Below, piece by piece: positions 9,136 through 40,952 of a DNA stretch of 64,000 nt; within the stretch, counting starts at the first letter, position 1; each line of letters starts with the position of its first letter. Origin of the DNA: Bacteroidales bacterium (GTDB taxonomy: Bacteria > Bacteroidota > Bacteroidia > Bacteroidales > UBA3824); assembly GCA_016293845.1 (NCBI GenBank), contig JAEDDH010000004.1, positions 142,084-206,083 of the forward strand. Direction: 5' to 3'. The notes under the pieces were generated by a model that made no database searches, was not told the DNA's origin, and was given only the letters and a program-made list of their open reading frames with translations. Both the position numbers and the translations under genes were made by a program.

Positions 9136-9171
9136 TGCAATAGTTTATCATTACACCTTATATAATAGTAA

Positions 9172-9908: not shown

Positions 9909-9935
9909 TAAACTGAAATTTATCCACAACTAAAA

Positions 9936-10982: not shown

Positions 10983-10994
10983 AACCTTTTAGCC

Positions 10995-11757: not shown

Positions 11758-11968
11758 AGTTACAAATATTACAAAACGTGGCAAAATTATAAAAAATAGA
11801 AAAAAAAAACAGAAATTTAACAATAGTTAAAGTACCAAATTGCCAAAATAATTTGTAATTTTGGAACGCAAACTATACAAGTAATGTTCGCACTGTTTGA
11901 TACGCTCAAAAAATCGGTATACATATTGCATTTTGATACAAAGAAAACAAAAACAGCACGCTAATTAA

Positions 11969-15238: not shown

Positions 15239-15264
15239 ATTATCAAATCAAGAAACCACTACAA

Positions 15265-17388: not shown

Positions 17389-17398
17389 AATAACTATA

Positions 17399-19354
17399 TT
17401 AAGTGGTTGTATTATTGTCTTTTAAATTATTTTCAGTATTGGTATTATCAATAAAATTTCTTGCATCTAATTCTTCTTGAAGCCGTTCAAGCTCTGCAAT
17501 ATGAGTTTCGAGTTTCCGCTGAATAGCTAATGTACGATCGGATTCTTCGCTCTTGAAAAAGTTGACAACCTCAACAAGACCGTCGGCATACTTAGAAAAT
17601 ATTTCAGCCTTTTTGAGCATAGCTTCTGCAGCATTAGCGTTATTGGCGGCAATTTCGGCAAGTTGCTGAATAGACAACAATATCTGTTGCGAACTTTCTT
17701 CCTCTTCTTTAATAGCAGCAGCAATAGACGAAATTTTTTCGCCTGCCGTATTAACCGCAGGAAGCAACAGTCCAAACTGCTTAAAAGCACGTTCAGAAAT
17801 TTGGATATTATCGGCACCGGCTTCGTCGATTTCTACGGCGGCAGCACGACAGCGTTCTGCAAGTTTTTTAATTTCACCTGCCACCACAGCAAAGCCTCTA
17901 CCCTCATCGCCCGCCTTGGCAGCTTCTACTGCAGCATTGATAGCAAGAAGTTCGGTTTTGGAGGCTATCTCGTTGATAACGTGGATTTTTTCGGTAATCT
18001 GTTTTGTACTTTCAAGTGATTTGGCAATAACCTGCGAAACCGAATTCATACTACCAACAATTTGTTCACTTGTACGCTGTGTATCAGCTGCATACAACGA
18101 ACTACGCGAAATAGATTCTTGCATTAATCTCATCACTGCATTAATCTCGTCGGCTGCCATCGACTGATTAGCAACGCTTTCGGAAATATGCTCTGCCGAG
18201 GTGTTGAGTTCGCGGCTATCACTCACAATCAAAGCTGCCTTGGTGCGTATATCTGTGGTTATCGACTGCAATTTGCGCGACATTTCAGCAATACCGTCAA
18301 GCATTTTACCAATCTCATCGTTGCGCATAGAATGTATTTCAGCCACCTTATATAATTTGCCCGCCGAAAAACACTCTGTTGCTTTCAAGAGATATTGCAC
18401 TGGTCGATTAACATACTTAGTAATAAGCCAATAAAGCACCACCGAAAACAAAATTATCGCCACTGGAACAAAAATATAAAACAACCTGATTAATACTATG
18501 TTGCGATTTTTCAACGTTTCCACAGGCATCACAAACACATAGTGCCAATCGGTGAAATCGATTTTTCGCCAAAGCAAAGCAAACCTTGCGCCAGAAGGAT
18601 GTTTAATAACAAGCGGATATTTTAAATCGTGACCTGCCATTATCTCTTTGCCAATAATATCCAGACCTTTGTAGATAGAAGAATCGGTAAGTTTAAATTT
18701 ATTAATCCACTCAGGATGCATATTAGAAGCTTGCACAAGTGCCGAATCGCTTGTAACTATCATTCCAACACCATCGCCAAGTACTTGTTTGTTGCAAACC
18801 AAATCGCTAACCCGCTGAGCGTCCAAAGCTACCGAAACAAGTCCGGTCATGGTATCTTTTTGCATAAACGGTGCATAAATAACAAAAACATCTCCCTTGC
18901 CATCGCGTGCAGGACGACGATTGGATACAAAAAAACGATTTCTGGTAAAAATTTTTATATTCTTTGGGGTAATTTTAAATGTATGATTGGTGTCGGTAAG
19001 AGTGGTAATGGTAGAACCTTCGTAATTAGAAAAGCCGCCGTAACGAAACCAACCTTCGCTTTTGTCTACAAGCAATTGCATCATACCAAGGCTAACAGTA
19101 TCGTTAATACGCTGAGCAGTGCGAAACACCGAAAGCATTTCTAACTGAGATACAACGTTTTCGAAATGTTTAGATATATAATCGGCATTATTAATAACCA
19201 TTTCGTACATTGCCTGACTCAGGGACTCTTTGTTGTTATGGCGAATTATCAAAAACAAAGTAAGGTTTACCCCCAATACCAAAAAGAATACCAGGGGTAC
19301 AAGAACCTTCATCATATTACCAGTAATGGTCTCTTTCTTTGGGCTTTTGTCCAT
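17399..19354 (-). CDS. Methyl-accepting chemotaxis protein-type receptor, paralog of 15265..17388
   Basis: Same architecture as its neighbour. The hairpin tip is [35 protein letters not shown]. The stop lies 10 nt before the start of the downstream paralog. Confidence 0.85.
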
Positions 19355-19443
19355 GACTTTACAAAAAATATCTGCCTATAAAGATACAATATATTTGCGT
19401 ATTGGCGAATAATATTTTTTGAATTTTTTAAAACAAATACACC

Positions 19444-20610
19444 TTATTTAAAAAGTTTCTGCGCAAAATCGCGGATAGATTTTCGCCACGGCTGCCATTC
19501 GTGATCGCCAGGGAAAGAGTTAAAAACTACGTTTACACCTGCATCTTGCATTGTTTTAACAACAGCTTTGTTGTATGTGATGCGGGGGTCTTGCTCGCCA
19601 CAACTGATGTATACCACCTTGCGTTGGCTGTTGAATTTTTTGGTATCGGTAAGTATTCCGGGACACTCTTTTTCAAGGTTGAAATTAGACGAACCCTGTA
19701 TGCCGCCAAACATTCCTGTTGAGAAAATACCCACATTTGCAAAAACTTCGGGAGTAAGCAATCCAACGTAAAACGACTGCCCCCCTCCCATCGACAATCC
19801 ACACATAGCACGATTATGAGCATCGGCTTTGGTACGGAAGTTTTTGTCTACAAAAGGGACGATGTTTTCAACCATCTCTTGCTTAAAGGTTTGCATTCCC
19901 TGTGCAGAGTAAGCGGGGTAACCCGGAACGCGTTTTTTAACATTTCCGTTGGCACAAACCACAATCATAGGCACAGCGCGCCCCGAGGCAATAAGGTTGT
20001 CCATAATATTAGCCAAACGTCCTTGCTGAACCCATCCTCGATGATCTTCGCCGCCACCGTGCTGAATATAAACTACAGGATAACTCTTTTTAAGGTCGTC
20101 GGAATATCCTGCAGGAGTGTAGACCCACAGCGGACGCCATTCGTTATCTACCTTAGAATAATAGTTGTGGATAGATACTTGACCGTGAGCAACATTCTGA
20201 ATTTCAAAATCTTCAGTATTGTCTTCGGGAATATCCACAGCGCTCATCATTTTGCCGCAGCCATAGAATGTTTCGGAGGCGGGGTCGTTTACCGAAACGC
20301 CGTCTACTACCAAGGCATAATAATGAAAACCAGGCACTTGCTCTGGAATTTCAACATACCATACGCCTTTGTCGTTTTTGGTCATATCATACTTTTTGCC
20401 GCAGATATCCACCTGAACATTATTGGCAGAGGGAGCATTGAGCGAGAATGCAACTTTTTTGTCCTTTAATATAAAAGGATATGAGTTTGGGCTGATATTG
20501 GTAGCCAAAGGTTTAGCACCATCGGGAATTTGAATTTGAGGTGCAAATTGAGCTGATGCGTTGATATTCAACAGCAAAACAAATGTAGGAATAAATAAAA
20601 ATCTTTTCAT
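19444..20610 (-). CDS. Secreted esterase (alpha/beta hydrolase, enterochelin-esterase/CE1-like) with N-terminal Ig-like domain
   Basis: Signal peptide MKRFLFIPTFVLLLNINASAQ. The nucleophile elbow is GLSMGG, and the HGGGEDH segment is typical of esterase D / CE1-type enzymes. Start moved to ATG 20610. Confidence 0.75.
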   Translation of the reverse strand: MKRFLFIPTFVLLLNINASAQFAPQIQIPDGAKPLATNISPNSYPFILKDKKVAFSLNAPSANNVQVDICGKKYDMTKNDKGVWYVEIPEQVPGFHYYALVVDGVSVNDPASETFYGCGKMMSAVDIPEDNTEDFEIQNVAHGQVSIHNYYSKVDNEWRPLWVYTPAGYSDDLKKSYPVVYIQHGGGEDHRGWVQQGRLANIMDNLIASGRAVPMIVVCANGNVKKRVPGYPAYSAQGMQTFKQEMVENIVPFVDKNFRTKADAHNRAMCGLSMGGGQSFYVGLLTPEVFANVGIFSTGMFGGIQGSSNFNLEKECPGILTDTKKFNSQRKVVYISCGEQDPRITYNKAVVKTMQDAGVNVVFNSFPGDHEWQPWRKSIRDFAQKLFK

Positions 20611-24403: not shown

Positions 24404-26533
24404 TTAAATTTCAGATTCCGGCGTACCTGGTGCTTTTTCGTAATCCCTTTGGTAAAGCGGGTTAAGATACTTGTCGGGAACAGTAGTAAGTGGTCGTATC
24501 AACAGAGTTTCTTTTGATCCCTGCTGTTTCATTCTAAACTCAACGCGGCGGTTGTAAGCCTTGGATTCATCATCGTATTCGCCATTAATAATATTAAACG
24601 AAATCGGGTTTTCTTCGCCCAAACCATTAACAACCATTTGTTTAGGTTGAACACCATGCTGAAGCAGATAGTTGTAGACCACTTGTCCGCGTTTTTTCGA
24701 CAATTTAAGGTTATATTCTGCACTACCTTTGGCATCGCAATAAGCTTTGATTTCTACAACGGCATCTCTATTGTTTTTCAAATACTTAGCAAGAGTATCA
24801 AGACTTGCATTCGGTTTCAGAGCCTTAGCATCGCCAAAGGGGAACGAAATATCTTCGATTTCGGCAAGACAATCGTACATCACACCATTTTCGTCGTAGA
24901 ATTTACCAGCAATGTGCTCAGATTCTTCGGATGGCACACGAGGTTCGGGACAATTGTGTTCGGGGTCGAGCTGAATTGTCTTGTAAGTCATTTGAGCGGC
25001 AGCGTTAGAAGCAATGTCGAATGTTTCGGCATAAACCTGTTTGCCATCTACCGAAGCAGTAATGGTATAGTTGTGAGCGCGGCGGCCAATAAAGATATAT
25101 TTGCCGGTAGATTTGTTGGGCAGAGCAGTATTTGTTATGCCAAGGCTATTATCACGAATGGTGATAAGGCTTTCGGGCACTTTGCCTTCGCACACACCAA
25201 CAAAACCTGTTACAACGGTAAGCTCGGTTTCCATAACAGAGGGAAGACCCATTACATAAATATCAGACCTACCGATGCCATCTTTACGCTCAGATGCAAA
25301 ATACGAACGTGCACTTGTAGGTGTAATAAAGAGGAATACATCGTCTTCGGCGGTATTAATGGGGAAACCTGCGTTTACTGCTCGCGACCAAGTGCCAAAC
25401 TCGGTAGCATCGCTATAAAATATATCGTATCCGCCTAAACCTCTGTGCCCCTTGCTACTAAAATAGAGTTTTGAGTTGTCTGGCAAGATAAAAGGACCTT
25501 CTTCGTCTTCGGCAGTGTTAACAGCATCGCCAAGGTTTGTTGCCACACCCCACGTTCCATCGGGCTGACGTTGCGATACATAAATATCATATCCGCCATA
25601 TCCTCCGGGACGGTCGCTTGCAAAATACAACCTTTGACCATCGGTAGATATACATGCACCAGTTTCGCGGTATTTGGTATTGATGTTTTCGTTGAGTGGA
25701 ATAGGCTCTGTCCAATCATCGCCATTAAATTTCGACAGCAACAGAGTTCCATTATCATCTTCGCGATAGATATAAAGTTCAGAACCATCGTACGATAGCG
25801 ACACAGTAGCCTCATGCTCAACTGTATTGATTTTATCGTTGAGCGGCTCGGGTGCCGACCATGTGCCAGTTTCTAATTTGCGCGACATGTAGATGTTTTC
25901 ATCGTATTGGTCGTCGGCTTCAATCTCGTGACCTTTGTAGGGACGGCGCGAAGTAAACAGCAACATCGATTCGTCGGCGGTAAGCACGGGGCTGTGGTCT
26001 GAGAACTCACTATTAACAATAGCTCCAAGATTCTGCACCTGTATTTCCACGGGATGACTTTTCATTTCGTTGGTAAGGTTGCAGAGGTCGATTTCTTTGT
26101 CGATAATTTCAAGAAATCTTTTGTTAGAAACGCTGCGTCTTAGTTTTTCGAGAGTGCTAAGTGCTTGGTCGATAGAATCATTAACGCGATAGGCACGTCC
26201 AAGATAAAATTCAGTTTCGATACCTTGAGTACCCTTGCGCTGTTTTGGTTTGTAGGTGCTGTATGCTTTTTTAAACTCGCTTATCGAAGAATCTTTTTTA
26301 GCAGAAGTGTTGAGGTAACAGAAACCGAGTTGAAAATGGTAAAGGCCATTGTCGGGCTCCATCTCAATCATTTTTTTATAGAGCGAAATTGCCGACGAAA
26401 AGTCTTCGTTAAACACCATTGATTCGGCCATTCCAATGTTAATATCGTCTTGGGCAGACGCTGTTTTGGTTAAACATAAAGAGCCTGCAAATACCGCAAT
26501 CACAACGATAAATGAAAAAAATGTTTTTTTCAT
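24404..26533 (-). CDS. OmpA-family envelope protein with TPR, TolB-like (PD40/WD40-like) repeats and C-terminal OmpA domain
   Basis: Signal peptide, then recurrent S..G..LYF.S.R.GG.GG.DIY repeats (PD40-type). The OmpA-like C-terminus has YNLKLSKKRGQVVYNYL...NRRVEFRM. The start is ATG 26533 (MKKTFF) or 26545. Confidence 0.8.
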   Translation of the reverse strand: MKKTFFSFIVVIAVFAGSLCLTKTASAQDDINIGMAESMVFNEDFSSAISLYKKMIEMEPDNGLYHFQLGFCYLNTSAKKDSSISEFKKAYSTYKPKQRKGTQGIETEFYLGRAYRVNDSIDQALSTLEKLRRSVSNKRFLEIIDKEIDLCNLTNEMKSHPVEIQVQNLGAIVNSEFSDHSPVLTADESMLLFTSRRPYKGHEIEADDQYDENIYMSRKLETGTWSAPEPLNDKINTVEHEATVSLSYDGSELYIYREDDNGTLLLSKFNGDDWTEPIPLNENINTKYRETGACISTDGQRLYFASDRPGGYGGYDIYVSQRQPDGTWGVATNLGDAVNTAEDEEGPFILPDNSKLYFSSKGHRGLGGYDIFYSDATEFGTWSRAVNAGFPINTAEDDVFLFITPTSARSYFASERKDGIGRSDIYVMGLPSVMETELTVVTGFVGVCEGKVPESLITIRDNSLGITNTALPNKSTGKYIFIGRRAHNYTITASVDGKQVYAETFDIASNAAAQMTYKTIQLDPEHNCPEPRVPSEESEHIAGKFYDENGVMYDCLAEIEDISFPFGDAKALKPNASLDTLAKYLKNNRDAVVEIKAYCDAKGSAEYNLKLSKKRGQVVYNYLLQHGVQPKQMVVNGLGEENPISFNIINGEYDDESKAYNRRVEFRMKQQGSKETLLIRPLTTVPDKYLNPLYQRDYEKAPGTPESEI

Positions 26534-26605
26534 ACTGTCAAACATTAGAATGTTATGTAATTTATTTTGCTACAAATTTATTAATTTTCTGTTACCTCAA
26601 AAAAT

Positions 26606-27757
26606 TTATTCAAAAAAATATGCCTTTGCCAAATCTCTCAGATTGTAGCGCGAAGCCATAATTTCGCCGTATGCTCCCGCCGAACGGAAAGCAATTAAGT
26701 CGCCACGTTGAGTAACGGGCAGCTTGTAGCCCTGAGCAAATACGTCGGTAGATTCGCAAATAGGGCCTACCACATCGTAAGTTTCGGTTTCGTTTGAAGG
26801 CGAAGTTATATTTTCGATTTTGTGATACGAACCGTAAAGAGCAGGACGAATCAAGTCGTTGAATCCAGCGTCTACAATTGCAAACGTGGTTTTGCTTGCC
26901 GGCTTGGTATACAAAGTACGGGCAATCATTGTGCCACATTGCGCAACCACAGCTCTACCAAACTCAAAATGAACTTTTTGACCTTCGCGAACGTCAAGAT
27001 TTTGATGAATTGTATCTAACAAGTTTTCAAAATCGGGAATCGGATTTTGGTCGGGATTGTAATAATCAACGCCAAGACCGCCTCCGAGATTGATTTCGGG
27101 CAAATTGAGACCCAACAATTGCAATTTTTGCTGCATTTCGTTGCTGCGTTGGCACAAAAGGCGATAAGGTTCTAAATCGAGAATTTGCGAACCAATATGG
27201 AAATGAATACCCACAAGGTTGATATTTTTTAGCACCATAACCTCTTTAACCACATCTTCTAAATAGTTGAAGTTGATACCAAATTTGCTGTCTTCCAAGC
27301 CAGTGTTGATACATTTATTGGTGTGGGCATCGATACCGGGATTGAGTCGCAATGCAATACGAGCGATTTTGCCACTTTGCGAAGCCAACTGATTGATTAC
27401 CTGAATTTCTTGTATAGATTCGCAGTTGAAACAAAAAATATCGTGTGCAAGAGCATCGTTGATCTCCTTGTCGGATTTTCCGACACCGGCAAACACTACT
27501 TTTGACGGGCTAAAACCACATTCAATAGCCTTGAGAACCTCGTTGCCGCTAACGCAGTCGGCTCCAAAGCCATATTCGCAAATGGTTTTTAAAATTTCAG
27601 GATTAGCATTGGCTTTTACAGCATAATGAATTTTGTAGCCATATTTGCTTGCCGCCTTCAACAGTGTGTCGAGCGTGCGGCGCAATAGCGACAAATCATA
27701 ATAATAAAAAGGTGTGGGAGTAGTTTCAAACTTTGAAATTAATTCTTTGGTAAACAT
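26606..27757 (-). CDS. lysA: Diaminopimelate decarboxylase
   Basis: 383 aa with TPFYYYD, the PLP-lysine motif HYAVKANANP, and GGGLGVDYY and CESTD motifs of the group IV decarboxylase fold. Confidence 0.92.
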   Translation of the reverse strand: MFTKELISKFETTPTPFYYYDLSLLRRTLDTLLKAASKYGYKIHYAVKANANPEILKTICEYGFGADCVSGNEVLKAIECGFSPSKVVFAGVGKSDKEINDALAHDIFCFNCESIQEIQVINQLASQSGKIARIALRLNPGIDAHTNKCINTGLEDSKFGINFNYLEDVVKEVMVLKNINLVGIHFHIGSQILDLEPYRLLCQRSNEMQQKLQLLGLNLPEINLGGGLGVDYYNPDQNPIPDFENLLDTIHQNLDVREGQKVHFEFGRAVVAQCGTMIARTLYTKPASKTTFAIVDAGFNDLIRPALYGSYHKIENITSPSNETETYDVVGPICESTDVFAQGYKLPVTQRGDLIAFRSAGAYGEIMASRYNLRDLAKAYFFE

Positions 27758-27937
27758 AATCAGTGTGTTAATAAAAAAAATGCTACATAATTTTTCGGGT
27801 TCAAAAATACGTTTTCAATTTTTTTCTGCAAAATTTTTTGTAAAATAATATATATATTAAACAATTTGTTAATTTTGTAACAAAACAAAGCAAGATAAAA
27901 CTCTGCTCAAAACGGCAAGATGTTTGTTTTTATCTAA

Positions 27938-27954
27938 TATATTTGCTACCTTTG
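27938..27954 (+). promoter_or_regulatory. Two adjacent -7 boxes (TATATTTG, TACCTTTG)
   Basis: Both match TAnnTTTG and lie 42-58 nt upstream of ATG 27996. They sit at the end of a 240-nt AT-rich intergenic region. Confidence 0.4.
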
Positions 27955-27995
27955 TAATTGCAAATGATTAATATTAAGAAATAAAAAACGGCAAA

Positions 27996-29900
27996 ATGAA
28001 CACACCCGAACAGCTATCGGTAAAATTTAAATTCAGAATAATGCTCATCTGTTTTGCGGCATACGCCGTACTTACAGGACTGTCGTTTATATATCTGACT
28101 ATCCACTACAACCAAATAGACGCAAGCTATCAAACCGAAACCACGATAAAAAACGAACTTGGCGAAATCCGTAACCTTCAATACGAACTCTTTGGTCTTT
28201 ACTCATCCACCCGAAACAAAGAGAAAGAAGATACGCTTATGTCGGAAATCAACAAGTTGTGCGCTCGTATCGACAAAGGAATCAACACATTATCAGAAGT
28301 AGAGCCCGAGCTCAACCGCAAAACCGTTCAATCAATATCCATACTGCGCGAAGAGTTCGACAACTACCAAAGCAAAATTAAAGAAATAGCCAAAACCAAA
28401 GAAGACATCAACGCCCTCATTGAAGACGCAGGCCGCCTCAATACCGACCGCAACACTGTGCGCAAAACCCTATTCCAGTTTACTCTCGCAGGCATGAGCA
28501 AAATGTTTGACGAAGCTTGCAAAAACGAAAAAGCATTCTTAGACAACAGCAGCATAGAGTATTACGAAAAATTCAACAAGCAAATCGATGGCATCAACAA
28601 TATTCTAAAATCTACCAACACAAGCAATATTTTGATAAAGTATCAGATGTCGAAACTGATGGATCAATTGTCGGAATATCGAATGACATTTAACCTTGTG
28701 TTTTCTAAACAGTTGCTACTCGGTCTTAACAACAACGACGGATTCAAAGGTGAAGCTGTGGCTCAAGTAAAAACCATGCAAAACGATATCGACGAGCTGA
28801 TTTTAGAATCCGACATTCTGCGTGCCGAAAAAAAGAAAAAAACCAACACTATAGTAGCTGTGGTGCAGATTTCGGTTATCATAATTGGCTTAACATTCTT
28901 CTTGATACTATTCTCGTCGGTAAACCACCCGATAGAAAAGATGAACGGCTATCTCGAAAAAATGCTAAAAGGCGACCTCACTCCGCCCAACATCAACGAA
29001 AACAGCAACAGCGAAATGAACGTGATGGCTAAAAAATTAGCCCTGTTTATCAACAATTTGAAACAAAAGCAGCTCTTTACCCAAGATATTGGCAGCGGCG
29101 ACACCCAAAAAGAGTTACCACTGCTAAGCGAAAACGACGAACTTGGAATTTCGCTCATCAACATGAAGAAAAATCTTGAAGAGCTATACGAATCGTATAA
29201 AAAACGCCGCGAAGCCGACGAAATTCAAGACAAAATCAACATCGGACTTGCCGAGTTTGGCGACATTCTGCGCAAAAACAACAACAATATCGACACTCTC
29301 TGCGACGAAACCACTCGCAACCTTATACACTATATGGCAGCCAATTACGCAGCCATGTATATCTATGTGGACGACAATCCTACCGACATTCACCTCGAAA
29401 TGAAAGCCACATACGCCGCCGACCACAAAAAATTTGTTCAGAAAAAAATCAGCCTCTACGAAGGCATTGTGGGAACATGCGCAGTGGAAAAAAATATTCA
29501 AATAATCGACGATATTCCTGCCGATTACATAAAAATTGGCTCGGGGTTTGGATTTACAAAACCAGGACACCTTATTGTAGTGCCCCTTATGCTCAAAGAC
29601 GAAATTTATGGTATTATCGAACTCTGCCGCACCGACAAGTTTGAAGATTACCGCATTAAATTTATCGAGCACCTTGCCGAAGATATTGCAAGCACTATCT
29701 CGTATGTAAAAGAAAACGCCAAAAACCTCTTTAAACTACACGAGGAAGGCAAACGTCTCGACGATTATTCGCAACGGATTCAAAAACTTGAAAAAGAAAA
29801 CGCTGCTCAAAACGCCGAAATCAAAAAATACAAAAAAGAGATTGAAAAGTTGAAAAGAGAAAACGAAAAACTCACCGACCAACAAATTTTAAACCAGTAG
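27996..29900 (+). CDS. Membrane sensor: helical extracytoplasmic domain, TM, HAMP-like segments, GAF domain, C-terminal coiled coil (no enzymatic output domain)
   Basis: Two TM segments flank ~250 helical residues. HAMP-like linkers are present (HPIEKMNGYLEKML..., ...SENDELGISLINMKKNL). A GAF-like region follows (LYEGIVGTCAVEKNIQIIDDIPADY...VVPLMLKDEIYGIIEL). The protein ends in KLEKENAAQNAEIKKYKKEIEKLKRENEKL. Confidence 0.7.
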   Translation: MNTPEQLSVKFKFRIMLICFAAYAVLTGLSFIYLTIHYNQIDASYQTETTIKNELGEIRNLQYELFGLYSSTRNKEKEDTLMSEINKLCARIDKGINTLSEVEPELNRKTVQSISILREEFDNYQSKIKEIAKTKEDINALIEDAGRLNTDRNTVRKTLFQFTLAGMSKMFDEACKNEKAFLDNSSIEYYEKFNKQIDGINNILKSTNTSNILIKYQMSKLMDQLSEYRMTFNLVFSKQLLLGLNNNDGFKGEAVAQVKTMQNDIDELILESDILRAEKKKKTNTIVAVVQISVIIIGLTFFLILFSSVNHPIEKMNGYLEKMLKGDLTPPNINENSNSEMNVMAKKLALFINNLKQKQLFTQDIGSGDTQKELPLLSENDELGISLINMKKNLEELYESYKKRREADEIQDKINIGLAEFGDILRKNNNNIDTLCDETTRNLIHYMAANYAAMYIYVDDNPTDIHLEMKATYAADHKKFVQKKISLYEGIVGTCAVEKNIQIIDDIPADYIKIGSGFGFTKPGHLIVVPLMLKDEIYGIIELCRTDKFEDYRIKFIEHLAEDIASTISYVKENAKNLFKLHEEGKRLDDYSQRIQKLEKENAAQNAEIKKYKKEIEKLKRENEKLTDQQILNQ

Positions 29901-29915
29901 CAAACCACACCAACA

Positions 29916-32600
29916 ATGGAAAACGACAAAACAAGGAGTCACAAACTAAACACTATTAGATGGAAAGTCGTAATGTCGGCATCGATTGCCGCTATACTGC
30001 TGTGCGCCGCTGTGTTGTTTGTATTTCACAAAGTTGTAGACCAAAAGCTGTCGGATTACAGTCGACAAAAAAGCAATATCACCACCGATAAATATACTGT
30101 GTTTTTTGAAAAACAACTTAACACCACAATATTCAACCTCAACGCTCAAGCCAATGCTCTTTCGGCTCTTATTCAGCAGACTGGAAATGCAGCAAGAGAC
30201 ATTTCGGTGAGCACTCTGTCGTTGTATCTACAAAAAGATCAGACCATAAAATCTATTTTTATAATTTCCGAGCCATATATTCTCACCAATAGCGACAGCC
30301 TGTTGGTAAACACAAATCCCGGATTTCCTATTGGATGGTATGGCAAAATTACACGTCACGAAAACACCGACACTCCCGAAATCACCAACGATTTACTCGC
30401 CACATCCACAGAGGTTTACGACCTTTATCGCGATACCAAGCACGACCTTGCGTCAAAAATTCTCGCTCTCGACATCGACGGTGAAATCACAAACACGTTA
30501 GTATGCCTTATTCCGTTTTTTCACAAAGATAAATTTGCCGGTGTAATTGGTGCCGACATCGACCTAAAATATTATCGAAACATACTCGACGAGCTGATTC
30601 CATCAGACCAATACGTAATTATCGCCGACAAAAACGGCAAAATATTCTACTCGCGCAAAAAAGAATTTCAAAACCACTATATAACAGAAACTCTGCGTTT
30701 TACCGAGGAACAATACAATATTATGGAAAAAACCAGCGAAAATCTTTCTGCCGATATTGAAACCAACCTTGCCGAAAACGACAACCAAAGCGTTTATATT
30801 CACAACAAACGCATCTCGATACCGTCCACCAACGATTTTTTTGCGCAAATTACTATCACCCCATCCATATCGCTCAAAACCGACCAATTAAAAGCAGAAG
30901 GTTCGGCGGTAATAATTTCGTTGTTGCTGCTCACTATCTTTATTATAGCAGTAATAATTATTTCGGGATACATAACCAAACCCCTCACCGCTCTCCGCGA
31001 TATTGTTAAACAAATAGCCGGAGGAAATTTTGAAATAGAGACATGGTCAAACTCTCAAGCATTGCACACAACCGAATTTGATTCGATATTGCGGTCGCTC
31101 CACTGGCTCACCAACTCACTAAAACAAACTGCCGAATTTGCATCCGACATTCGTGATGGCAACTTAGACGCAGAATATAAGGTATCTATAAAAAATAATG
31201 CTATAGGCACAGCCCTTGTTTCGATGCGCGACAGTATGATAGAGACTCGCGAAAAAGAACAAAAACGTATTGCCGAAGAAAAACGCACCCAGTGGGCTAC
31301 CGAAGGTCACTCTATATTTAGTGATATTCTGCGAAACAGCGTTTCAGACATTCACAAGCTTAGCAACGCCGTTATCGACAACCTTGTACCTTATATTAAT
31401 GTAAACCAAGGCGGTATCTTTATCCGCACCAAAGACCCCAACGATCAAGAAAAAGAAATACTTGAACTATATGGAGTGTTTGCATTTGGACACGAGAGGT
31501 TTCACAAGCGCACCTTGCAGTTAGACGAAGGTCTTATAGGTGCCTGTGCAATGGAAAAACACACTATTGTGCTCAACAATGTGCCCGACAACTATGCTGA
31601 CATCAGTTCGGGACTTGGCAAGGCTAAGCCCAAAGCCATAATGTTTGTACCCCTTGTCTACAACGATACTCTTTATGGTGTAATGGAATTTGCATCGTTT
31701 AAAGAATTTGAACAATATCAAATATCATTTGTGGAGCGTATTTCTGAAAACGTGGCTTCGACCATTGCCAACGCAAAAATCAACGAACAGACAGCCGAGC
31801 TGCTTCAACAGTCGCGTCTGCAATCAAAACAGATGGAAGAAAAAGAAGCCAACCTCCGCAGCGAAATCGAAACCCTTACAAGTCTTGTAGAAACATCTCA
31901 ATACGAACTATCGCAAATAGAAAAAACTCAATATGCCCTCAACCGCACCATTATGAGCGCAGTATTTAGTATCAAAGGCGAAACTCTCGATGCCAACCGA
32001 AAATTCTGTTTACGTTACACATTGGATGTCAACGATATAAAGCGCAAAAACATCTACGAAATTTTGCAATTGACCCTTGCTAAATACGATGACTTTAAGC
32101 GTGTTTGGGACAGCGTTAAGCAGGGCAGCACCGAAACCTACGTTTCTGAATTTAAAATCAACAATTCGATTCGTAAGATCAAAAACATACTTGTGCCCAT
32201 CTACAATTCTGACAACTCAGTAGAAAAAATACTCTGCCTTGCATTCGACGTTACCACACAGCTCAACACCGAAGAAGAACTCGCCAAAATACAAAAGCAA
32301 TACACATCGGTAAGCGAAGAATCTAAAAACATGAAAAAAAAGATCAAGCAGTTTACCGAAGATATCGAACAGCTTAACCGCGAACTTACTGATTCTAAGC
32401 GTCAGAATGTAGAAAACCGTCAAAAATTTGACAAGGCATCTGCGTCAGAAGCATTCTTCAAGCGCGAACTCGAAAAACGCATCACCAAGTTCCGCAAAAT
32501 TGAAGCTAACCTCAAAACCAAAGTTAAAAACCTTGAAACTCAATTAGAAAGCTACACCAAAAACAACAACGACGAAAACAATAAGAATATCACTCAATAA
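29916..32600 (+). CDS. Membrane sensor: Cache-like domain, TM, HAMP, GAF, PAS-like domain, coiled coil (no enzymatic output domain)
   Basis: The periplasmic part resembles a Cache domain ([14 protein letters not shown]...[12 protein letters not shown]). It is followed by HAMP ([20 protein letters not shown]) and GAF ([25 protein letters not shown]...[16 protein letters not shown]). Next comes a ~110-aa PAS-like segment and then a long coiled coil. The stop overlaps the next ATG (TAATG). Confidence 0.7.
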
Positions 32601-33286
32601 TGAAAAAAATATTTTTCTATATTATCATTGTAACGCTCAGTATACTACCAAATATTACAAAGGCGCAAACATTCGACTATCAGAACATTCTGAAGTTTGC
32701 CCACTATGTATATTGGCCGGAGCTCCAACAAGGCACAGGTCTTAGACTTGCCATATCTAAAAAACTTGTAGAACTACTCAGCGGCAAAATGTGGGTAGAA
32801 AGCGAAGAAGGCAAAGGCAGCACATTCTTCTTTACCCTTCCTTACGACCCCGAGCTCAACACAGCCGACAAATACGGAGCATCAGGCTCGTCGGACGATG
32901 CCGAAGTTACCCTCAATGGTAAAAAAATAATGGTGGCCGAAGACGAAGAAATAAACCGTATGCTAATGAACGAAATTCTTGCCGAAACAGGCGCAGAGAT
33001 AATTTGGGCAGAAGACGGCGGACAAGCTGTGGAAATAGCAAACAGCAGAACAGACATCGACCTGATACTCATGGATATAAAGAAGCCTGTGATGGACGGT
33101 TACGAAGCCACACGTGCCATTCGTGAGTTCAACAAAGATATTATTATTATAGCGCAAACCGCCTACGCCCTTAGCGACGAAAAAGAAAAAACCATTAAGG
33201 CAGGTTGCAACTACTATCTTACCAAACCGCTCAACATCAGCCTTTTGATGAAAGTGCTTGGCGGATTCTTAAAAAAGAAGAGTTGA
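32600..33286 (+). CDS. Chimeric ORF: signal peptide/YfiR(DUF4154)-like N-terminus joined to the last ~40 aa of an HATPase_c domain plus an intact receiver (REC) domain
   Basis: [23 protein letters not shown]...[15 protein letters not shown] looks like the start of a YfiR/DUF4154 protein. From about nt 32730 it continues as [38 protein letters not shown], the G2 box to the end of a histidine-kinase ATPase. REC follows (MVAEDEE...[13 protein letters not shown]...YLTKP). No HisKA, N-box or G1-box is present. Confidence 0.6.
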
Positions 33287-36200
33287 GCAAGACAGATATA
33301 TTTGTAGGACGCGAAAAAGAACTCCACCGTATGCACAACCTCTACGAGCAGGTGTGCAACGGTAAGGGGCAAATTGTGCTCATAGGTGGCAAATCGGGAT
33401 GCGGCAAATCGGCTTTGGCAAAAATGTTTGCACAGAAAACCGCCGCGGTTTCTATGTGCACCACTATATCGTTCAAATGCCGTTGTGCAAGCGAGGCATT
33501 ATCGTATGGTATGCTTTACCACACACTTACGCAGCATAAGCCATCCAAAGAGCAGCGCGACAGCTTTGCTAAGTATTCGCCCGACGAAGCTGCAGACTTT
33601 TTTTTCAAATATCTGCAAGATAGTTCGTCAGAGAATCCAACAATAATCATCGCCGACGATTTTCAACACTGCAATCCCGACATTTACAATATGATATACG
33701 CTCTTGCACAGCATATTGTAAGCAATAATTGCAAAATAATGGCTGTGGTGGCGTACAATATGGCAGATCAGGTTATCAAGGCAGACCCACTCATCAACCG
33801 CATCTCGCGCGACCTGTTTCCAATAAAAATAGGCAGCATCACCCAAGCATGGAAAACAGGAGGATTTTGCGAACTCGTTCCCGAGCCGTTGAAACTATCT
33901 GACACAGCCGACATGATATCCACAATGTTTACTGGCAACGAGTTTCCGTCAGACACTGCCAACATAATTCATTCTGTTACACAGGGCAATCCCGCATTTC
34001 TTACAGGTTTGCTCAAATATATGCAGCAAAACGGCGACATCAAGCAAATAGACGGCAGATGGATAATTGATAATCTGAACTTCTATTCAAACGCTAATCA
34101 TTTGCAAGACGTTTTGCCTAAGCCTATTGCACATTCAAAATACCGTTACACCGCCATCAAGGAAAACGGAATTGGCAATCCAAAAGAATTGTTAGACAAG
34201 ACGATAGCAGCAGTACAAAAGCCATCAATGCCCGAGGCTGTGAAACTCGCCGACAAAACTTGGAATGCTTTAGCTCATTACCGCTCGTCGGAAGCCGTTT
34301 GGGAATACCGCGCCACCTCATTACAAGCCAAATACCTTGCCCTATCATGGCTCGGATATCACAAAGAGGCTCTCGAATGTGGAACGGCATTGCTCGGCTG
34401 TTCAAAAAAATTAGACAACAAATACTACTTAGTGGCAGGCTATTACTTTGTAGGTCAAGAATATCTGTACCTTTCAGATCACGACAAGGCTATAAAATAC
34501 ATACAAAAAGCAATCGACTATCTTAAAGAAAACCCAAAACATCCCGCATTAGCCGACTGCTACTATGCTTTGGGCAAGGTGTACCTCACCCGAAACAACC
34601 ATACTTCTACAGACTATTTTTTGAATCTCGCGCTCAAAGGTTTCACCGAAAAAAAAGACGAAGACAAGCTTGCTCTGGTGAAAATAGACCTTGCCACGCA
34701 CAAACGTTCTGGCAAAGACAATGCAAGTGCATATTTGCTGCTCAAGGAGGTGATAGACTATTGCACCAAAGCCGTTAAGCCGCACATTCTTGCCAAGGCG
34801 TATATCAACCTCGGACTATCTTACGACAACGACAACCGTTTTGCCGAAGCAAAAAAATACTACACAGAGGCTCTCAGGCTATGTTTCCACACTGGCGACC
34901 GCATCAACCTTGCCAACTGCTACAACAATATGGGTCTGTCGAAAAACTCTCAGAGCAAATTTACAGAAGCGTTGGCATACTTTCACAAAGCATTGGAAAT
35001 CGACCGTATGCTTGGCAATACTGCCAAGATATCAATAAGTTACAACAACATAGGTCTTGCGCTGCTCAACAACGGCGACATCAACGGTGCCGAAAAATAT
35101 TTCAACGCCGCATTAGAAAATGATTCAAATGCGCCCAATAAGTATGGCATTGCATTAACATACAGCAATTTAGGTGCACTATATTCGCAAAAATCCGACA
35201 CCGAGAATGCTCTTCGTTACTACAAATTAGCCCTCAAAGAAGACCACGCCAACAACTATATTGAAGGAATGATAGCCGACTACAACGCTATTGGCAACAT
35301 TCATTACGGCAACGAAAATATAGAAGAAGCAATACAGTGCTTCAACAAATCGCTTGAACTGTCGCAGCAAAGCAACGACGAAGCTGCTCTTGCTGCTGTA
35401 TGCAACAATATTGGAAACATATATTTTGCTCAAAAAGACAACGAAAACGCCACACAGTATTACACCGAGGCACTCAACATAAACACTCGCATCGGCTACA
35501 ACGCCGCCGCTGCGCTCAACTACTCTAACCTCGCCAACATCTACGAAGAGCAAAACAATGCCGCACGTGCCGAAACCTATTACGACCAAGCCATTGAATT
35601 ATATCACAAAGCGAAACTCAAGGATCAAGAAGCCTACAATCTGAGTTCGCTTGCTATGCTCTATTATCGCAACAACAAATACAACAAAGCCAAAGTTACA
35701 TACCTTCACGCCGCCAAACTATACAAAAACATCAACAACACAAAGGAATACATCCGCATGATTACCTTTGCCGGCGACTCTATGCGTATGCTATCCGAAT
35801 ACAAAGAAGCTCAAAAACTTGTAGAAGAAGCAATAGAGTTGAGCCGAAATTTAGGCGACACCCACTCCGAGGCTCTTGCCGATGGCACTATGGCTTGTTT
35901 GTATACCGAAATGTACGAATATGAATGTGCCGTAGATTATTACAAAAAGGCAATAGAACTATACCGAAACGACAACGACCTTGAAATGTACGCTGATATG
36001 CTGTCGGCACTTGCCTACCTACACAACGACAACGGAAACACTGACGAGGCTCTGTTATGTCAGCATCAGGTAATCGACACCTACCGACAAATTGGCAACA
36101 CCGAACTGTTAGCGGCTTCGTATGCCGAAATGGGCTTGTTTTACGAAGAAAACAACTACGAACAGTCGGCGGAAAACTACATATTGTCGGCACAACATTA

Positions 36201-37692
36201 CAACATAGCCGACAAACCCGGACGACAAGCCGACGCACTTATACACGCTGCCAACGCGCTTATGCACACACAAAACCGTGGCAAAGGGTACGAATGTCTC
36301 ACCACGGCTGTGGATATTCTGCAAAAGATGAAGCAAGAGCACGGCGAAGAAGTGTCAGAATCCGACATCAACGACAAACTTGTTCAGGCATTCACCGCCA
36401 TTGCCGACTACTTTTTTGAAATCAAAGATTATTTTGCGGCGGTGGCAAATTACACCACAGCATTAGATATCAGCTCAAAGACAGAATCGCACACACGCAC
36501 CGCCTACATCTGCAACAATATCGGATATACTTACGATACAATAGGCTACTTTAATCGCGCTCTCGAATACTACAACAAGGCGTGTCAAGAATACGACCAA
36601 GAAGAATTTAAAAGCGAAGGTCTTTTCAACAACCTTAAAAACGTGGCTCTTATGTACGAGCGTTTAGGCAACGACCAAAAAACTACAGAGTATTACCGCA
36701 AGGCTTTCGACACTTTTGAAAACAAATTTCACATAGATATTTCCGCACTTGCTGGCTGCGCTCTTTCGGCTGCCAACGCTATTTTTAATTCAAATGGCGA
36801 CATCGAAACTGCCACACAATACTATCAAAAGGCACTTCACCTTTACAAAAAAGACGACAACAACAAAGGAATCATCAATACATTGCTTAGCAGAGCGATT
36901 TCCAACGCTATTGGAAATCGCAACAGTGAAGCCTTATCGCTTGCAAGTCAGATTATGCGCATATTTGACATTGCTTCTGACATCGAAACCAAATGCAATG
37001 CACTCCGCGCTGTGGCTCAGATACATATCAAACTCGGAAACTTAAACGATGCGGTAAAATATTATCAACAGGCATTAGACATACTGTTTGCCCGTGACCT
37101 TTGGGATGCAGCCGCACACCAATATTATAACATGGCAACGCTTTTTGCCGAACACTGTGGCAAGATGGCGGCTACTATCGATTTCAACGGTAGCACGCTA
37201 ACTATCTACAATTTCATTTCTAAATTGATGTCAAATGCTGTGGAACTCGCCAAAACCGAAAAAGACATCGAACTTGAAATACAGGTGCTTTCGTCGCAAG
37301 CAAGGTATAATGTGCAGTGCAACGAAAAAAATCTCGGACTTGAATATATGACCAAGGCAGTGGAAGTGGCAGGTGGTACTGGCGACCCCGAAACCGAAGC
37401 CGCTACCCTATTAGAAATGGCCGACTTTCTTATGCACTACTATAGACACTTTGACGGAGCCGAGCAATGCATCAACCGTGCTATTTATAATTTAGAACCT
37501 TTAGGAAATTATCATATTAACTTAGCGTTGGCCCGTGTACTTAAATTCGTAGCGCTTGTTTTTCAACAAAAATACGACGAGGCTGGCAGTATATTCAAAT
37601 TATATTCACAACTATTTGCAGGTTACATAAAAAACATACCCATGCTACTACCTGCACTACAAGAGTTTCACAACAATTACAGCCCTAAATAG
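33283..37692 (+). CDS. STAND-like P-loop NTPase (AAA_16-type) followed by ~1200 aa of TPR repeats
   Basis: FVGREKEL...[18 protein letters not shown] (Walker A) and IIIADDFQH (Walker B) are present. TPR-type repeats then run to the C-terminus. There is no ATG upstream of the FVGRE motif. Candidate starts are TTG 33283 (TTGA overlap with the REC stop) and TTG 33205, so the start is uncertain. Confidence 0.8.
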
Positions 37693-38308
37693 TTTGCAAT
37701 ATCATCGCACCAAGTTGATCTGCTGAGTCTGCCACATTGTTGTTTGATGCTAACAATGCTTCGCGTGAATTAAATCCCCACGACACCGAAATAATATCCA
37801 AACCCACTTTGCGGCAGGCCTCAATATCACGTATTTCGTCGCCGACATATAATATAAAGGTGTAGTTTCTATGTAAAAATCTTACTGCACGCCTTAGAGC
37901 ACGGCTTTTGCCAAACAATGGAACGTTGGTCTTAATATAGCAAAAATAGCTATCTAACGCATTATTAGTTAAAAACTTACCAACAGTTTCGGCAGAATTT
38001 GTGGATAATATACCCACATCGCAATGCTGCGAAAGTTGCCGCACCATTTCTACCACTCCATTAAAAGGTTTAATTTCATCGGCACGTTTGGAAGACTCTC
38101 TGCGAAAGAATCGCACAAGGCGTGGTATCTGCCACCATTTTACACCCGAAAGTTTTACCAACTGACGTGCCGAATGGTCTTTGTGCTTGGCAAAATCTAT
38201 CTTACTATAGCCAAATTGTTCGGCAAACTGGTTGATAAGTCTTGCCCCCGACTCAAAAGTATCGGCAAGAGTGCCATCAAAATCAAACAAAACAATAGAA
38301 GACTGCAT
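37685..38308 (-). CDS. HAD-superfamily hydrolase (phosphoglycolate-phosphatase-like)
   Basis: Motif I is VLFDFDGTLADT, with ILSTNS and a late VGDEIRD motif. Start set to ATG 38308 (MQSSIVLFDFDG), 1 nt after the stop of the upstream gene. Confidence 0.8.
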   Translation of the reverse strand: MQSSIVLFDFDGTLADTFESGARLINQFAEQFGYSKIDFAKHKDHSARQLVKLSGVKWWQIPRLVRFFRRESSKRADEIKPFNGVVEMVRQLSQHCDVGILSTNSAETVGKFLTNNALDSYFCYIKTNVPLFGKSRALRRAVRFLHRNYTFILYVGDEIRDIEACRKVGLDIISVSWGFNSREALLASNNNVADSADQLGAMILQTI

Positions 38309-38309
38309 A

Positions 38310-40952
38310 TTAAATAGCACTTCGCGACACAGTTTCGGTGGCGGTTCCGTTTGCAAAAATAATGTCTACATCCTCGTTGAAATTGCCAATGGCTATCATA
38401 TTGCCCACGTTGCTCATAGTTATAAGTTTTGGGAAATACATCATAAAAATCTCGCGACCTTTTTCGGATGTAGAAGAATTGTAAAATCTAAGTTTGCGGT
38501 CGGCACCGAGCACCGAAAAGAATTGCGAATCGCTGCTAATCTTGATGTCGATAACTTCGCAGTCGATATTAAATTCGGCAACAGGTATCGGTATCTGAGG
38601 ATTATACACACACACACGACCATCTTTGAATCCATAAATAAGCCTTGTGGCATCAGAGTTTACCGACATCGACTTGATTTCTGACGAGCTTTCGATGCCG
38701 AGTTTAAAAATCTCCGATAGAGCGTTGATACGGTAAATCTTCAAGTTGTGAAAATAGTCGTAGCCAGCCACATACTGCATATCACGCGAAACCGACATCA
38801 GCCTAAAGTCGGCAATAGCCTTGTTGATCACCTTGGTTCTGATGTCAACCTTATAGAGCGAAAAGTTGTCGCTTACAAAGAGGGTCTCGTTGTTAAACGG
38901 GTGGAAAAACATCTTTTTGATAGTGCCGGTGTAGTTTATAATATCGGAGAAAAGGCTGAAACCACCTGTAGATACGTTCATTACACGCAAGAAACTCTGT
39001 CCGCCCACAGCCATAAATTTATTGTTGCGGCTAAATGCCATAGCAGTGGCGTTAACATCTTGTTTATGAATAGTTTCCCACGATGAAGTATCAAATACAC
39101 GAAGTTTTCGGCTCTGATCGGCAATAGCGATATACTCATCGTTGAAACTGAAGCATATATCTGTAACACCCTCATGCGCTATCTTGATATTTCGTGTATT
39201 GAATCCTTTAAACTGATTGTCAGCGTTTTTGCCCTCGTCTTGTTTTTGTTTTATAATCATAACACGGGCAGTTTGATTGCCAAGCGAAGCCGACTGTTGC
39301 AAATATTCGTTGTAGCCCGATTTGTCGCCAATTTTTTCGTACACTCCGGCAAGGGTAAGCAATACGTCTTCGGGATGGGCAATCTTGTGCGAAATTGCAT
39401 ATTTGAAATACTCAATTGCCTTGGGATAACGGCTAAGCATAAGGCTTGCCACAGCCGCATTGTAATAAGCGTCTGGATTATCGGGATTCAATTTGATAAC
39501 GGTTTCGCAGTCTTCGATGGCGAGTTCCAACTTGCCGAGATTGCCGTATGCAGTGCTTCGACGGAGATAAGCAAGTTGGAAAGTTGGGTCGATGGCAATC
39601 ACCTTGTTGCAACAGTCGAGCAAAAAATCCCATTTTTCAAGATTGTGGCATTCGTTCATCTTAGCCACAAGTTCCACAATATTTTTTTTCTCCACAGAAC
39701 GGGGATCAGAAAACACAGGTTCGGGAGCAGGTTGCGGCTCAGGCTCAGAAGCGGGTTCTGGAGTAGGCTCAGGAGCGGGTTGAGGCTCAAGTTCGGGTTC
39801 AGGATCGGGCAACGGCTCGTCGATAGTGTTCATAAAGTGGGGATTTGGATTCTCTCCGGAGTCGGTAATTTCGGGGGTTTCTTGCTGGATTTCCATTTCT
39901 GATGATGTTTCTTCTATTGTATCGATTTCTTCTTCGGTTTTTGAATCTTCATCTTGATTTGTGATTTCTTCGGGCTCTGGTTCCTCCATGGGTTCAGGAA
40001 TTCCGAGATAGTTTTCGCGGTAACGCTCTTGGCGGAGTTGTAAGCAGCGGTCGTAGGTCCACATATCCAAAGGCTGAATATTGTCCACTGTATTGAACTT
40101 TTGCAGCACGGTGTCGTCGCCAATAATTTCGTAAATAGTCTGAGCAATATATTTGCAGCAACTAATAGGCTGTTTTACAATTTGTTCCTCGGCAAAACGG
40201 ACAATAAACCATCCAGCCTTTTCAAAAAAAGTATCGTGTTCTTGCTTAGAAAACTCGCAGCTATCCTTCTTCACAAATGTAGTGGGTTCGCCCGACTCCA
40301 TATCATAAGGAGAATCAATTTCTACATCAATATAAAGTTTTTTGTCGGAAACCGAAACAATATAAGTAGGCACAAAACCTTTACTATCAAGACTTTGCAA
40401 AATAGTGTAATTAATAAGCACCTTGTCGGGAAAATATTCGTTGAGTATTTTGTAAAAATCATCGTTGCACCCAACGCCACATTCGTCGGCAGGTTTCAGT
40501 TGACAATTGGTAAACTGCAAAGCGTCAGCAACTTTAACACTACGAAAACGGGCAAGAGAAGCACGGTCGTTGTTTTGACGGTTGGCCTCATCAATGGCGG
40601 CAAGTTCGTCGTTGTAACCACGCATCAGGTATTCGTAGTTGGCAAGCGCCTTTTGATTCGAAAGTTTTTTCAACCGGTTGAGAATGCAGTCGTATACAGC
40701 CAAACCAACAGAAGCCACCAAAAAAACAGTGAGCAAAGCTGTTAGCCAAGTGAAAGCAGGCAGAGGGCAAAACTTGTATCCTGCCACTAATCCTACAGCC
40801 ACTGCGGATAATACAAATCCTGTGTAACGCATTTTGGCAAGCGTTGGACGTTGGGGCATTATGGGTGAAACGGGCACGGGGATACGACTGTCCTGCGCCT
40901 CTAAAATATTACGCGGAATTATACTTGCTGGATATTGAGTGTAATTGTACAT
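38310..40952 (-). CDS. Large membrane-anchored protein: 2 TM, restriction-endonuclease-fold-like domain, Pro/Glu-rich linker, TPR repeats, WD40-like beta-propeller
   Basis: Two TM helices lie near residues 45-95. LYIDVEIDSPY...DTFFEKAGWFIVRFAEEQI fits the DUF559/DUF2726-type pattern (hhhEhDG...D..L...GW.hhRF). The PEPEPELEPQPAPEPTPEPASEPEPQPAPEP linker is encoded at about 39700-39830. TPR-like repeats follow (AYLRRSTAYGNLGKLELAIEDCETVIKLNPDNPDAYYN). About 290 C-terminal residues have WD40-like periodicity. Domain calls are by eye. Confidence 0.6.
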   Translation of the reverse strand: MYNYTQYPASIIPRNILEAQDSRIPVPVSPIMPQRPTLAKMRYTGFVLSAVAVGLVAGYKFCPLPAFTWLTALLTVFLVASVGLAVYDCILNRLKKLSNQKALANYEYLMRGYNDELAAIDEANRQNNDRASLARFRSVKVADALQFTNCQLKPADECGVGCNDDFYKILNEYFPDKVLINYTILQSLDSKGFVPTYIVSVSDKKLYIDVEIDSPYDMESGEPTTFVKKDSCEFSKQEHDTFFEKAGWFIVRFAEEQIVKQPISCCKYIAQTIYEIIGDDTVLQKFNTVDNIQPLDMWTYDRCLQLRQERYRENYLGIPEPMEEPEPEEITNQDEDSKTEEEIDTIEETSSEMEIQQETPEITDSGENPNPHFMNTIDEPLPDPEPELEPQPAPEPTPEPASEPEPQPAPEPVFSDPRSVEKKNIVELVAKMNECHNLEKWDFLLDCCNKVIAIDPTFQLAYLRRSTAYGNLGKLELAIEDCETVIKLNPDNPDAYYNAAVASLMLSRYPKAIEYFKYAISHKIAHPEDVLLTLAGVYEKIGDKSGYNEYLQQSASLGNQTARVMIIKQKQDEGKNADNQFKGFNTRNIKIAHEGVTDICFSFNDEYIAIADQSRKLRVFDTSSWETIHKQDVNATAMAFSRNNKFMAVGGQSFLRVMNVSTGGFSLFSDIINYTGTIKKMFFHPFNNETLFVSDNFSLYKVDIRTKVINKAIADFRLMSVSRDMQYVAGYDYFHNLKIYRINALSEIFKLGIESSSEIKSMSVNSDATRLIYGFKDGRVCVYNPQIPIPVAEFNIDCEVIDIKISSDSQFFSVLGADRKLRFYNSSTSEKGREIFMMYFPKLITMSNVGNMIAIGNFNEDVDIIFANGTATETVSRSAI

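Follow-up and report, generated by a model that had tools for sequence, protein, structure and literature searches.

The subject of this work is a pair of adjacent genes, here called S1 and S2, in a 64,000-nucleotide (nt) stretch of DNA from a Bacteroidales bacterium (assembly GCA_016293845.1, contig JAEDDH010000004.1, positions 142,084-206,083 of the forward strand), hereafter the window. They open a run of four consecutive genes on the plus strand, which continues with a short open reading frame (ORF3) and with a gene for a STAND-like protein built of an AAA_16 P-loop domain and TPR repeats (AAA_16-TPR). S1 and S2 encode large membrane receptors that end in helices, with no recognised output domain. 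The best explanation as a whole, which we regard as probable, is that they are input-only sensors for a hybrid histidine kinase encoded in the same gene cassette, and that this kinase has recently been deleted in this rumen strain. Receptors without output that are followed by a kinase fragment would thus be explained by a strain-level deletion in a conserved four-gene cassette, and there would be no need for a new pathway from the sensors to the STAND-like protein, which an earlier note on this DNA had proposed.

A conserved four-gene cassette and the deletion within it

The genomic context of the sensor genes was surveyed by tblastn in 41 loci plus one further locus, L044. Among the locus entries with enough downstream flank, which span 35-98% identity in S2 and include a few duplicate views of the same contig, 31 of 31 have the order S1, S2, YfiR-like (DUF4154) gene, hybrid histidine kinase gene. 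The start of the YfiR-like gene overlaps the S2 stop codon or lies 3-15 nt from it. In intact relatives the YfiR-like product has 170 residues and matches PF13689 at 1.3e-14 and, below the cutoff of that family, NF053591 at 5.6e-10. The intact kinase has 745-762 residues, with two transmembrane (TM) helices around a periplasmic domain of about 130 residues, followed by HAMP, PAS, HisKA with a canonical H-box, HATPase_c and REC; this fourth gene would supply the sole catalytic part of the cassette. In L044 these four genes stand in another neighbourhood, with the gene for ribosomal protein L28 upstream in place of a LysA-like gene, and the cassette thus moves as a unit. The co-location of S1 and S2 with the kinase is in this way conserved in 31 locus entries and two neighbourhoods, as would be expected of accessory sensors. 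A PD40-OmpA gene (24404-26545, minus strand) lies two genes upstream of the cassette in the window; it is syntenic in most relatives and does not adjoin the cassette in L044.

In the window, a deletion has fused the start of the YfiR-like gene with the tail of the kinase gene, and the product is ORF3, a chimera of 228 residues whose kinase part starts with QQGTGL (Table 1). By blastn, window positions 27001-32723 and 32725-38500 are collinear with positions 6361-12101 and 14238-20013 of the intact locus L015; 2135 bp are missing from the window relative to L015 and 2139 bp relative to L016. Beyond one base, no microhomology or repeats were found at the deletion ends. The same junction is present in six independent metagenome assemblies from at least two projects, at 99.94-99.98% nt identity to the window. 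The closest intact relatives are L016 (97% nt identity), L015 (about 94-95%) and L033 (about 93%, with 97% amino-acid identity in S2). The deletion is real, recent and strain-level, and the lineage that carries it is nearly clonal. An assembly artefact was considered as its source and is ruled out, since the six independent assemblies share it. The junction also creates the sequence GAGCTC, a SacI site, at 32720-32725; its presence in all six assemblies indicates that this is probably chance.

In ORF3 Pfam detects no HisKA, and of HATPase_c just the final 41 residues (profile positions 70-110 of 111), so the HisKA and the complete HATPase_c of a hybrid histidine kinase are both gone. The earlier note had taken ORF3 for a REC remnant. 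A REC domain is indeed there, but it is complete (Response_reg, 1.3e-22, profile positions 1-109 of 111), and it is preceded by the HATPase_c end and by a foreign N-terminus with a signal peptide. The suggestion that the receptors had lost their output through a deletion at 32600-33286 was right in that a histidine kinase has been deleted there; this kinase was, however, a separate and complete gene, and S1 and S2 themselves lost nothing. The comparison of orthologous loci that the note had called for finds an intact hybrid histidine kinase between the sensors and the TPR gene in close relatives, for example L015 and L016.

The YfiR-like and kinase genes lie in different frames, and the net loss of sequence brings them into one frame. 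Ribosomes can thus still reach the TTGA overlap at the end of ORF3, which leaves the AAA_16-TPR gene open to translation. ORF3 residues 1-23 (32600-32668) are a Sec-type signal peptide inherited from the YfiR-like gene, and this peptide now stands ahead of the HATPase_c fragment and the full REC; REC is therefore predicted to be exported or mislocalised and should be useless.

Two receptors without an output domain

The layout that had been read from the DNA, with a sensor domain, TM helices, HAMP and GAF in both proteins and an additional PAS in the second, is borne out by Pfam, AlphaFold2 and Foldseek, and the two genes are consecutive, 15 nt apart and conserved over their full length. Pfam detects GAF in S1 at 4e-14, together with a weak HAMP match, and GAF in S2 at 7e-15. 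In the AlphaFold2 model of S1 (predicted local distance difference test score, pLDDT, 79.5), two TM helices flank an all-helical periplasmic domain and are followed by HAMP, GAF and one helix; the GAF domain reaches a Foldseek TM-score of about 0.7 to the GAF domains of PtsP and Lcd1. The S2 model (pLDDT 72) runs from TM1 through dCache, TM2/HAMP, GAF (residues 479-600), a helix (residues 600-678) and PAS into a single helix. Its dCache domain has a TM-score of about 0.7 to chemoreceptor dCache domains, and a sequence search of the PDB returns 3lib at 3e-5 as well as a match to the Af1503 HAMP. S1 and S2 are paralogous over the HAMP-GAF region (29% identity), and S1 terminates at the point where S2 runs on into PAS and a second helix.

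Searches of both proteins against Pfam and NCBIfam returned no kinase, cyclase, GGDEF/EAL, phosphatase, MCP-signal or DNA-binding domain, in agreement with the earlier description of a long C-terminal helix free of catalytic or DNA-binding modules. Neither database gives a HisKA or DHp domain with a phospho-accepting histidine in S1 or S2, and the C-terminal helix of S2 contains no histidine residue. HATPase_c has no match in Pfam or NCBIfam, and the AlphaFold2 models finish in a single helix. The signalling hairpin of methyl-accepting chemotaxis proteins (MCPs) was sought as MCPsignal in Pfam, again without a match, and the resemblance to chemoreceptors is confined to the ligand-binding domain. 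NCBIfam holds no family name for either protein.

In about 50 Bacteroidales relatives at 35-98% identity, the lengths and the stop codons of the sensors are unchanged. Full-length relatives of S2 form about 47 clusters of 883-908 residues and 52-97% identity (869-908 residues when more distant relatives are included), and those of S1 about 45 clusters with 633-644 residues; where a source is named, it is an uncultured member of the Bacteroidales sampled from the rumen or hindgut of yak, sheep, goat, horse or deer. Pairwise ratios of nonsynonymous to synonymous divergence (dN/dS) are 0.05-0.09 across both sensor genes and 0.07-0.09 for S1. Since the end points are identical in all relatives that still carry the kinase, the lack of output is native to S1 and S2, an ancestral trait of the family and not a truncation.

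It could be argued that a split or truncated hybrid kinase has left S1 and S2 as its N-terminal parts, an outcome that the earlier note had allowed for, or else that both are decaying relics. The HAMP-GAF-PAS-helix layout does resemble the input half of many kinases, and a kinase fragment follows in the window, but the stop codons stand at the same position in all relatives, kinase-bearing ones included, and the neighbouring kinase is complete, with TM segments, HAMP and PAS of its own. Comparison of the S1 and S2 C-terminal helices with the DHp of the neighbouring kinase family by hhalign gives a probability of 0.1%, that is, no similarity. The low dN/dS and the absence of any lost invariant residue in S1 or S2 (see below) likewise speak against decay, and we consider this explanation scarcely credible and, on these data, refuted. 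A degenerate DHp was also considered for the end of S2, where by eye the sequence slightly resembles an H-box with Arg replacing His; it was rejected on the same hhalign result against the kinase family and on the model, which has one helix and no hairpin.

The best-conserved segment of S2 lies within this last helix, at residues 839-873. Its columns from K840 to K869 are invariant in our alignment A1, and the motif is nearly invariant across relatives at 52-97% identity. P0112, which is 35% identical to S2 overall and has its C-terminus directly behind the motif, shares 27 of the 35 motif residues. Among the 149 nearest representatives of a wider group of related receptors (see below), matches to a hidden Markov model of the motif are confined to the S1-S2 orthologous group. 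The segment is likely to be a contact or output surface, and we propose it as a candidate for that role.

Selection after the deletion and the STAND-like gene

Branch-specific substitutions were counted in the kinase remnant, S2 and AAA_16-TPR with L015 and L016, which lacks S1, as references, and the invariant positions of the kinase were defined over 20 intact kinases. The kinase remnant in ORF3 has changed at 4 of 81 invariant positions, and its window branch carries 4 synonymous and 6 nonsynonymous changes (pN/pS, the corresponding ratio for these counts, 0.40); on the two sister branches combined, the same segment has 0 nonsynonymous and 18 synonymous changes. The changes at invariant sites are G49R (in the G2 box), G61S, E91K and M162K, none of which occurs in the six closest intact relatives; M162K replaces an invariant Met three residues past the acceptor Asp, in the DIKMP motif of REC. 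S2, in contrast, has changed at 0 of 214 family-invariant positions and has 34 synonymous and 3 nonsynonymous changes on the window branch (pN/pS 0.02), where about 26 nonsynonymous changes would be expected at the rate of the remnant. S1 has changed at 0 of 173 invariant positions. The kinase remnant is thus drifting or decaying, whereas S2, and by the invariant-site test S1, remain constrained.

The AAA_16-TPR gene has 54 synonymous and 27 nonsynonymous changes on the window branch (pN/pS 0.13), against 28 synonymous and 2 nonsynonymous (0.02) on the L016 branch and a ratio of 0.10 on the L015 branch. Its constraint may have been mildly relaxed after the loss of the kinase, although the window value resembles that of the L015 branch. 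The TTG start of this gene overlaps the stop codon of ORF3, or of the kinase, as gagTTGA, and this arrangement is kept in 10 of 10 loci of the closest clade. Protein similarity begins at the TTG, and the ATG at 33331 chosen by the gene caller is a Leu codon in two relatives. The translational coupling of AAA_16-TPR to the preceding gene is thus real. Coupling of both downstream genes had been noted before and holds, with TAATG joining S2 to ORF3 and TTGA joining ORF3 to AAA_16-TPR.

Where the downstream flank is available, AAA_16-TPR is found in L011, L012, L015-L020, L033 and the window lineage only, at S2 identities of at least about 85%. Behind the cassette it is missing from about 20 loci in which S1, S2, the YfiR-like gene and the kinase are all present (S2 at most 68% identical), and from L044. 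It is thus a clade-specific addition behind the kinase. Large repeat proteins do recur downstream of the cassette, all on the minus strand: a TPR/WD40 protein of 880 residues in the window (38310-40952), an nSTAND1-WD40 protein of 1132 residues in L009 (15803-19201) and a WD40 protein of 1065 residues in L007 (22373 to the end).

These data bear directly on the idea that S1 and S2 touch the AAA_16-TPR protein through their coiled-coil ends, in a sensor-to-STAND pathway, for which the earlier note had expected the sensors and the STAND gene to be conserved together. The gene has the same direction as the sensors, shows translational coupling to its upstream neighbour and stays constrained after the loss of the kinase, and large STAND, WD40 or TPR genes stand near the cassette in other relatives as well. 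The coupling, however, is to the kinase/REC gene and not to S1 or S2, the neighbours in other relatives belong to different families on the opposite strand, and the S2 motif is equally conserved in genomes where the locus has no STAND-like gene. Co-conservation fails, being restricted to nine loci of the closest clade and the window lineage, and the sensor-to-STAND idea is thus left unsupported and, in our view, very unlikely.

The coordinates of all features are collected in Table 1. The three TAnnTTTG motifs upstream of S1, which we take to be the Bacteroidetes-type -7 promoter consensus, compare with a frequency of 0.83 per kb across the window, and they likely mark the promoter of the operon, as predicted from the motif. 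A scan of 27700-38400 for sigma-70 promoters and terminators gave counts no better than those in shuffled sequence, which is expected for Bacteroidetes and thus uninformative; no plus-strand terminator was found at the gene junctions in the same interval. In relatives with S2 at most 68% identical, an aspartate-kinase gene lies between the LysA-like gene and S1 (L007 6458-7801, L009 5781-7899, L010 5780-7887), and L009 and L010 have a further ORF of about 215 residues in this interval. Both are absent from the clade of the window (27758-27995 in the window), which points to a second local rearrangement.

Table 1. Features of the sensor locus, in window coordinates
Feature	Nucleotides	Strand	Residues	Basis or remark
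TAnnTTTG, three copies, at 27870, 27938 and 27947	27870..27954	+		238-nt intergenic region upstream of S1; motif scan
S1: TM1, all-helical periplasmic domain, TM2, HAMP, GAF, C-terminal helix	27996..29900	+	634 in all	Pfam, AlphaFold2, Foldseek
S1 HAMP	28917-29063	+	308-356
S1 GAF	29286-29699	+	431-568
S1 C-terminal helix	29646-29894	+	551-633
S2: TM1, dCache, TM2, HAMP, GAF, helix, PAS, long C-terminal helix	29916..32600	+	894 in all	Pfam, AlphaFold2, Foldseek
S2 dCache	30246-30863	+	111-316
S2 TM2 and HAMP	30969-31136	+	352-407
S2 GAF	31344-31766	+	477-617
S2 PAS	31953-32249	+	680-778
S2 long C-terminal helix	32259-32567	+	782-884
S2 conserved C-terminal helix motif	32430..32534	+	839-873	best-conserved segment of S2
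ORF3 (chimera)	32600-33286	+	228 in all
ORF3 first part: 5' end of YfiR-like (DUF4154) gene, signal peptide and first ~18 mature residues	32600..32722	+	1-41	matches N-termini of L009 and L015 DUF4154 genes
Deletion junction, codon CTC	32723..32725	+	42	T at 32724 fits neither flank
ORF3 second part: 3' end of hybrid histidine kinase	32726..33286	+	43-228	aligned to last 186 kinase residues
ORF3 HATPase_c, G2-box end	32726-32848	+	43-83
ORF3 complete REC domain	32927-33256	+	110-219
AAA_16 P-loop/TPR (STAND-like) gene	33283..37692	+	1469 in all	Pfam AAA_16 and many TPR repeats

Proposed accessory sensing and a wider group of input-only receptors

In the mechanism that we propose, S1 and S2 would dimerise, each with itself or with the other, by way of their HAMP, GAF and helix segments. 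They would touch the kinase directly and so relay to it what dCache and the helical bundle sense in the periplasm and what GAF and PAS sense in the cytoplasm; the contact surface would be the invariant helix motif at the C-terminus of S2. The YfiR-like protein would act on the periplasmic domain of the kinase, by analogy with YfiR and YfiN. The deletion has left S1 and S2 without the cis-encoded kinase, still under purifying selection.

An output-less accessory sensor beside a kinase is a general kind already well known. The inner-membrane protein IgaA, for example, acts on the hybrid kinase RcsC (PMC12471899). As in such pairs, S1 and S2 are output-less proteins encoded beside a (hybrid) kinase, a setting in which the kinase is thought to be controlled by contact; unlike the known accessory sensors, to which they are unrelated in sequence, each is a complete receptor-like chain (periplasmic sensor, TM, HAMP and GAF, with PAS in S2), and they come as two in tandem. 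UhpC-UhpB, H-NOX-HnoK and NosP-NahK are further pairs with an accessory, or third-component, sensor. A second point of comparison is the YfiBNR system, in which YfiN is a CHASE8-HAMP-GGDEF cyclase and YfiB an OmpA-like lipoprotein. The cassette of intact relatives shares with this system a DUF4154/YfiR-like protein encoded directly upstream of a membrane protein with a small periplasmic domain and HAMP. It differs in that the output of the partner is HisKA-HATPase-REC and not GGDEF, that the cassette contains no YfiB gene and that two extra sensor genes precede the pair; the window itself keeps just 41 codons of the YfiR-like gene. How YfiR, a periplasmic repressor, acts on YfiN has been described (PMC2837407, PMC3375315, PMC4887326). 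With MCPs and dCache-HAMP sensor kinases, finally, S1 and S2 share a periplasmic dCache domain or helical bundle, two TM helices and HAMP, but they are without the MCP hairpin, the DHp and the ATPase domain. In the searchable literature we found no published description of the S1/S2 family or of the cassette, only papers on YfiBNR and general reviews.

The sensors are also part of something much larger. An exhaustive profile search gave 4310 representatives at E below 1e-30; a (dCache)-HAMP-GAF-PAS(n) layout is common to the 149 best, and no kinase core occurs among them. Pfam scans of 38 long-tailed members found an output domain in 0 of 38; the domains seen were PAS, GAF, HAMP, Cache and, in five, hemerythrin. 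S2 matches the group at E of about 1e-100 to 1e-160 over positions 317-790 or so, that is, from HAMP to PAS, and like the group it joins this core to no recognised output. The two sensors are thus members of a very large, unnamed group of input-only receptors from Bacteroidales and other uncultured bacteria, which no paper in our literature search describes. Names are almost absent among the nearest representatives, one being 'cache domain-containing protein [Bacteroidales bacterium]'. In our alignment A3 (P0122 to P0259), 5 of 30 long input-only proteins contain hemerythrin domains, and some have at least 10 PAS repeats and more than 2000 residues. A tandem pair also occurs in L043 (3363-14938), where P0108 (1030 residues) stands beside a paralogue of 1018 residues, with a SiaC-like gene upstream and a cyanophycin synthetase gene downstream. 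What sets S1 and S2 apart from the wider group is the C-terminal motif of S2 and the constant association with a YfiR-like gene and a kinase gene, both of which, as judged from the profile matches and gene contexts, are specific to the S1-S2 orthologous group.

Several points weigh against the cassette kinase as the partner of S1 and S2. First of all, it is gene order alone that suggests a physical contact between the sensors and the kinase. Second, our view is limited to 64 kb of the genome, and a second copy of the kinase elsewhere is possible. Third, a CHASE8 assignment for the kinase's periplasmic domain comes from precomputed matches in L007, L008 and L010 only; among the closest relatives the match is weak or missing, with none in the closest intact kinase (L015), which makes the likeness to YfiN less complete. 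Fourth, the 3 nonsynonymous changes in S2 against about 26 expected suggest that S2 retains a function without the neighbouring kinase. Finally, the two distant group members with readable context, in L042 and L043, have no adjacent kinase, and an input-only receptor of this class thus needs no kinase next to it.

Taken at their strongest, these points would have S1 and S2 signal to a partner encoded elsewhere, through the S2 helix motif, the PAS domain or both, with the neighbouring kinase merely co-regulated or one of several partners. This alternative would agree with the uniformly input-only character of the nearest representatives and the scanned long-tailed members, with distant members that stand apart from kinases, with the strong constraint on S2 on the very branch where the kinase was lost, and with the retention of every family-invariant residue in S1 and S2. 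The orthologous group, on the other hand, always comes with its YfiR-like and kinase neighbours, in one and the same gene order, overlapping or nearly abutting and in two neighbourhoods, and the constraint on S2 may largely pre-date the deletion. We therefore hold a partner elsewhere to be rather unlikely, though worth keeping in mind, and continue to favour the hybrid kinase of the cassette.

A related and tentative idea, possible but doubtful at present, is that the terminal helix of about 35 residues in S2, or, for the input-only group at large, its terminal PAS or helix, is an undescribed output device towards separate kinases or effectors. If this is true, the constraint on S1 and S2 in the kinase-deletion strain would indicate that the neighbouring kinase is not their only partner. 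The larger question concerns the thousands of unnamed membrane proteins with HAMP, GAF and PAS but no output domain, and how this group transmits its signals. A subgroup that is fixed beside a YfiR-like protein and a hybrid kinase, together with a strain in which the kinase has been lost naturally, offers a concrete test case for input-only signalling.

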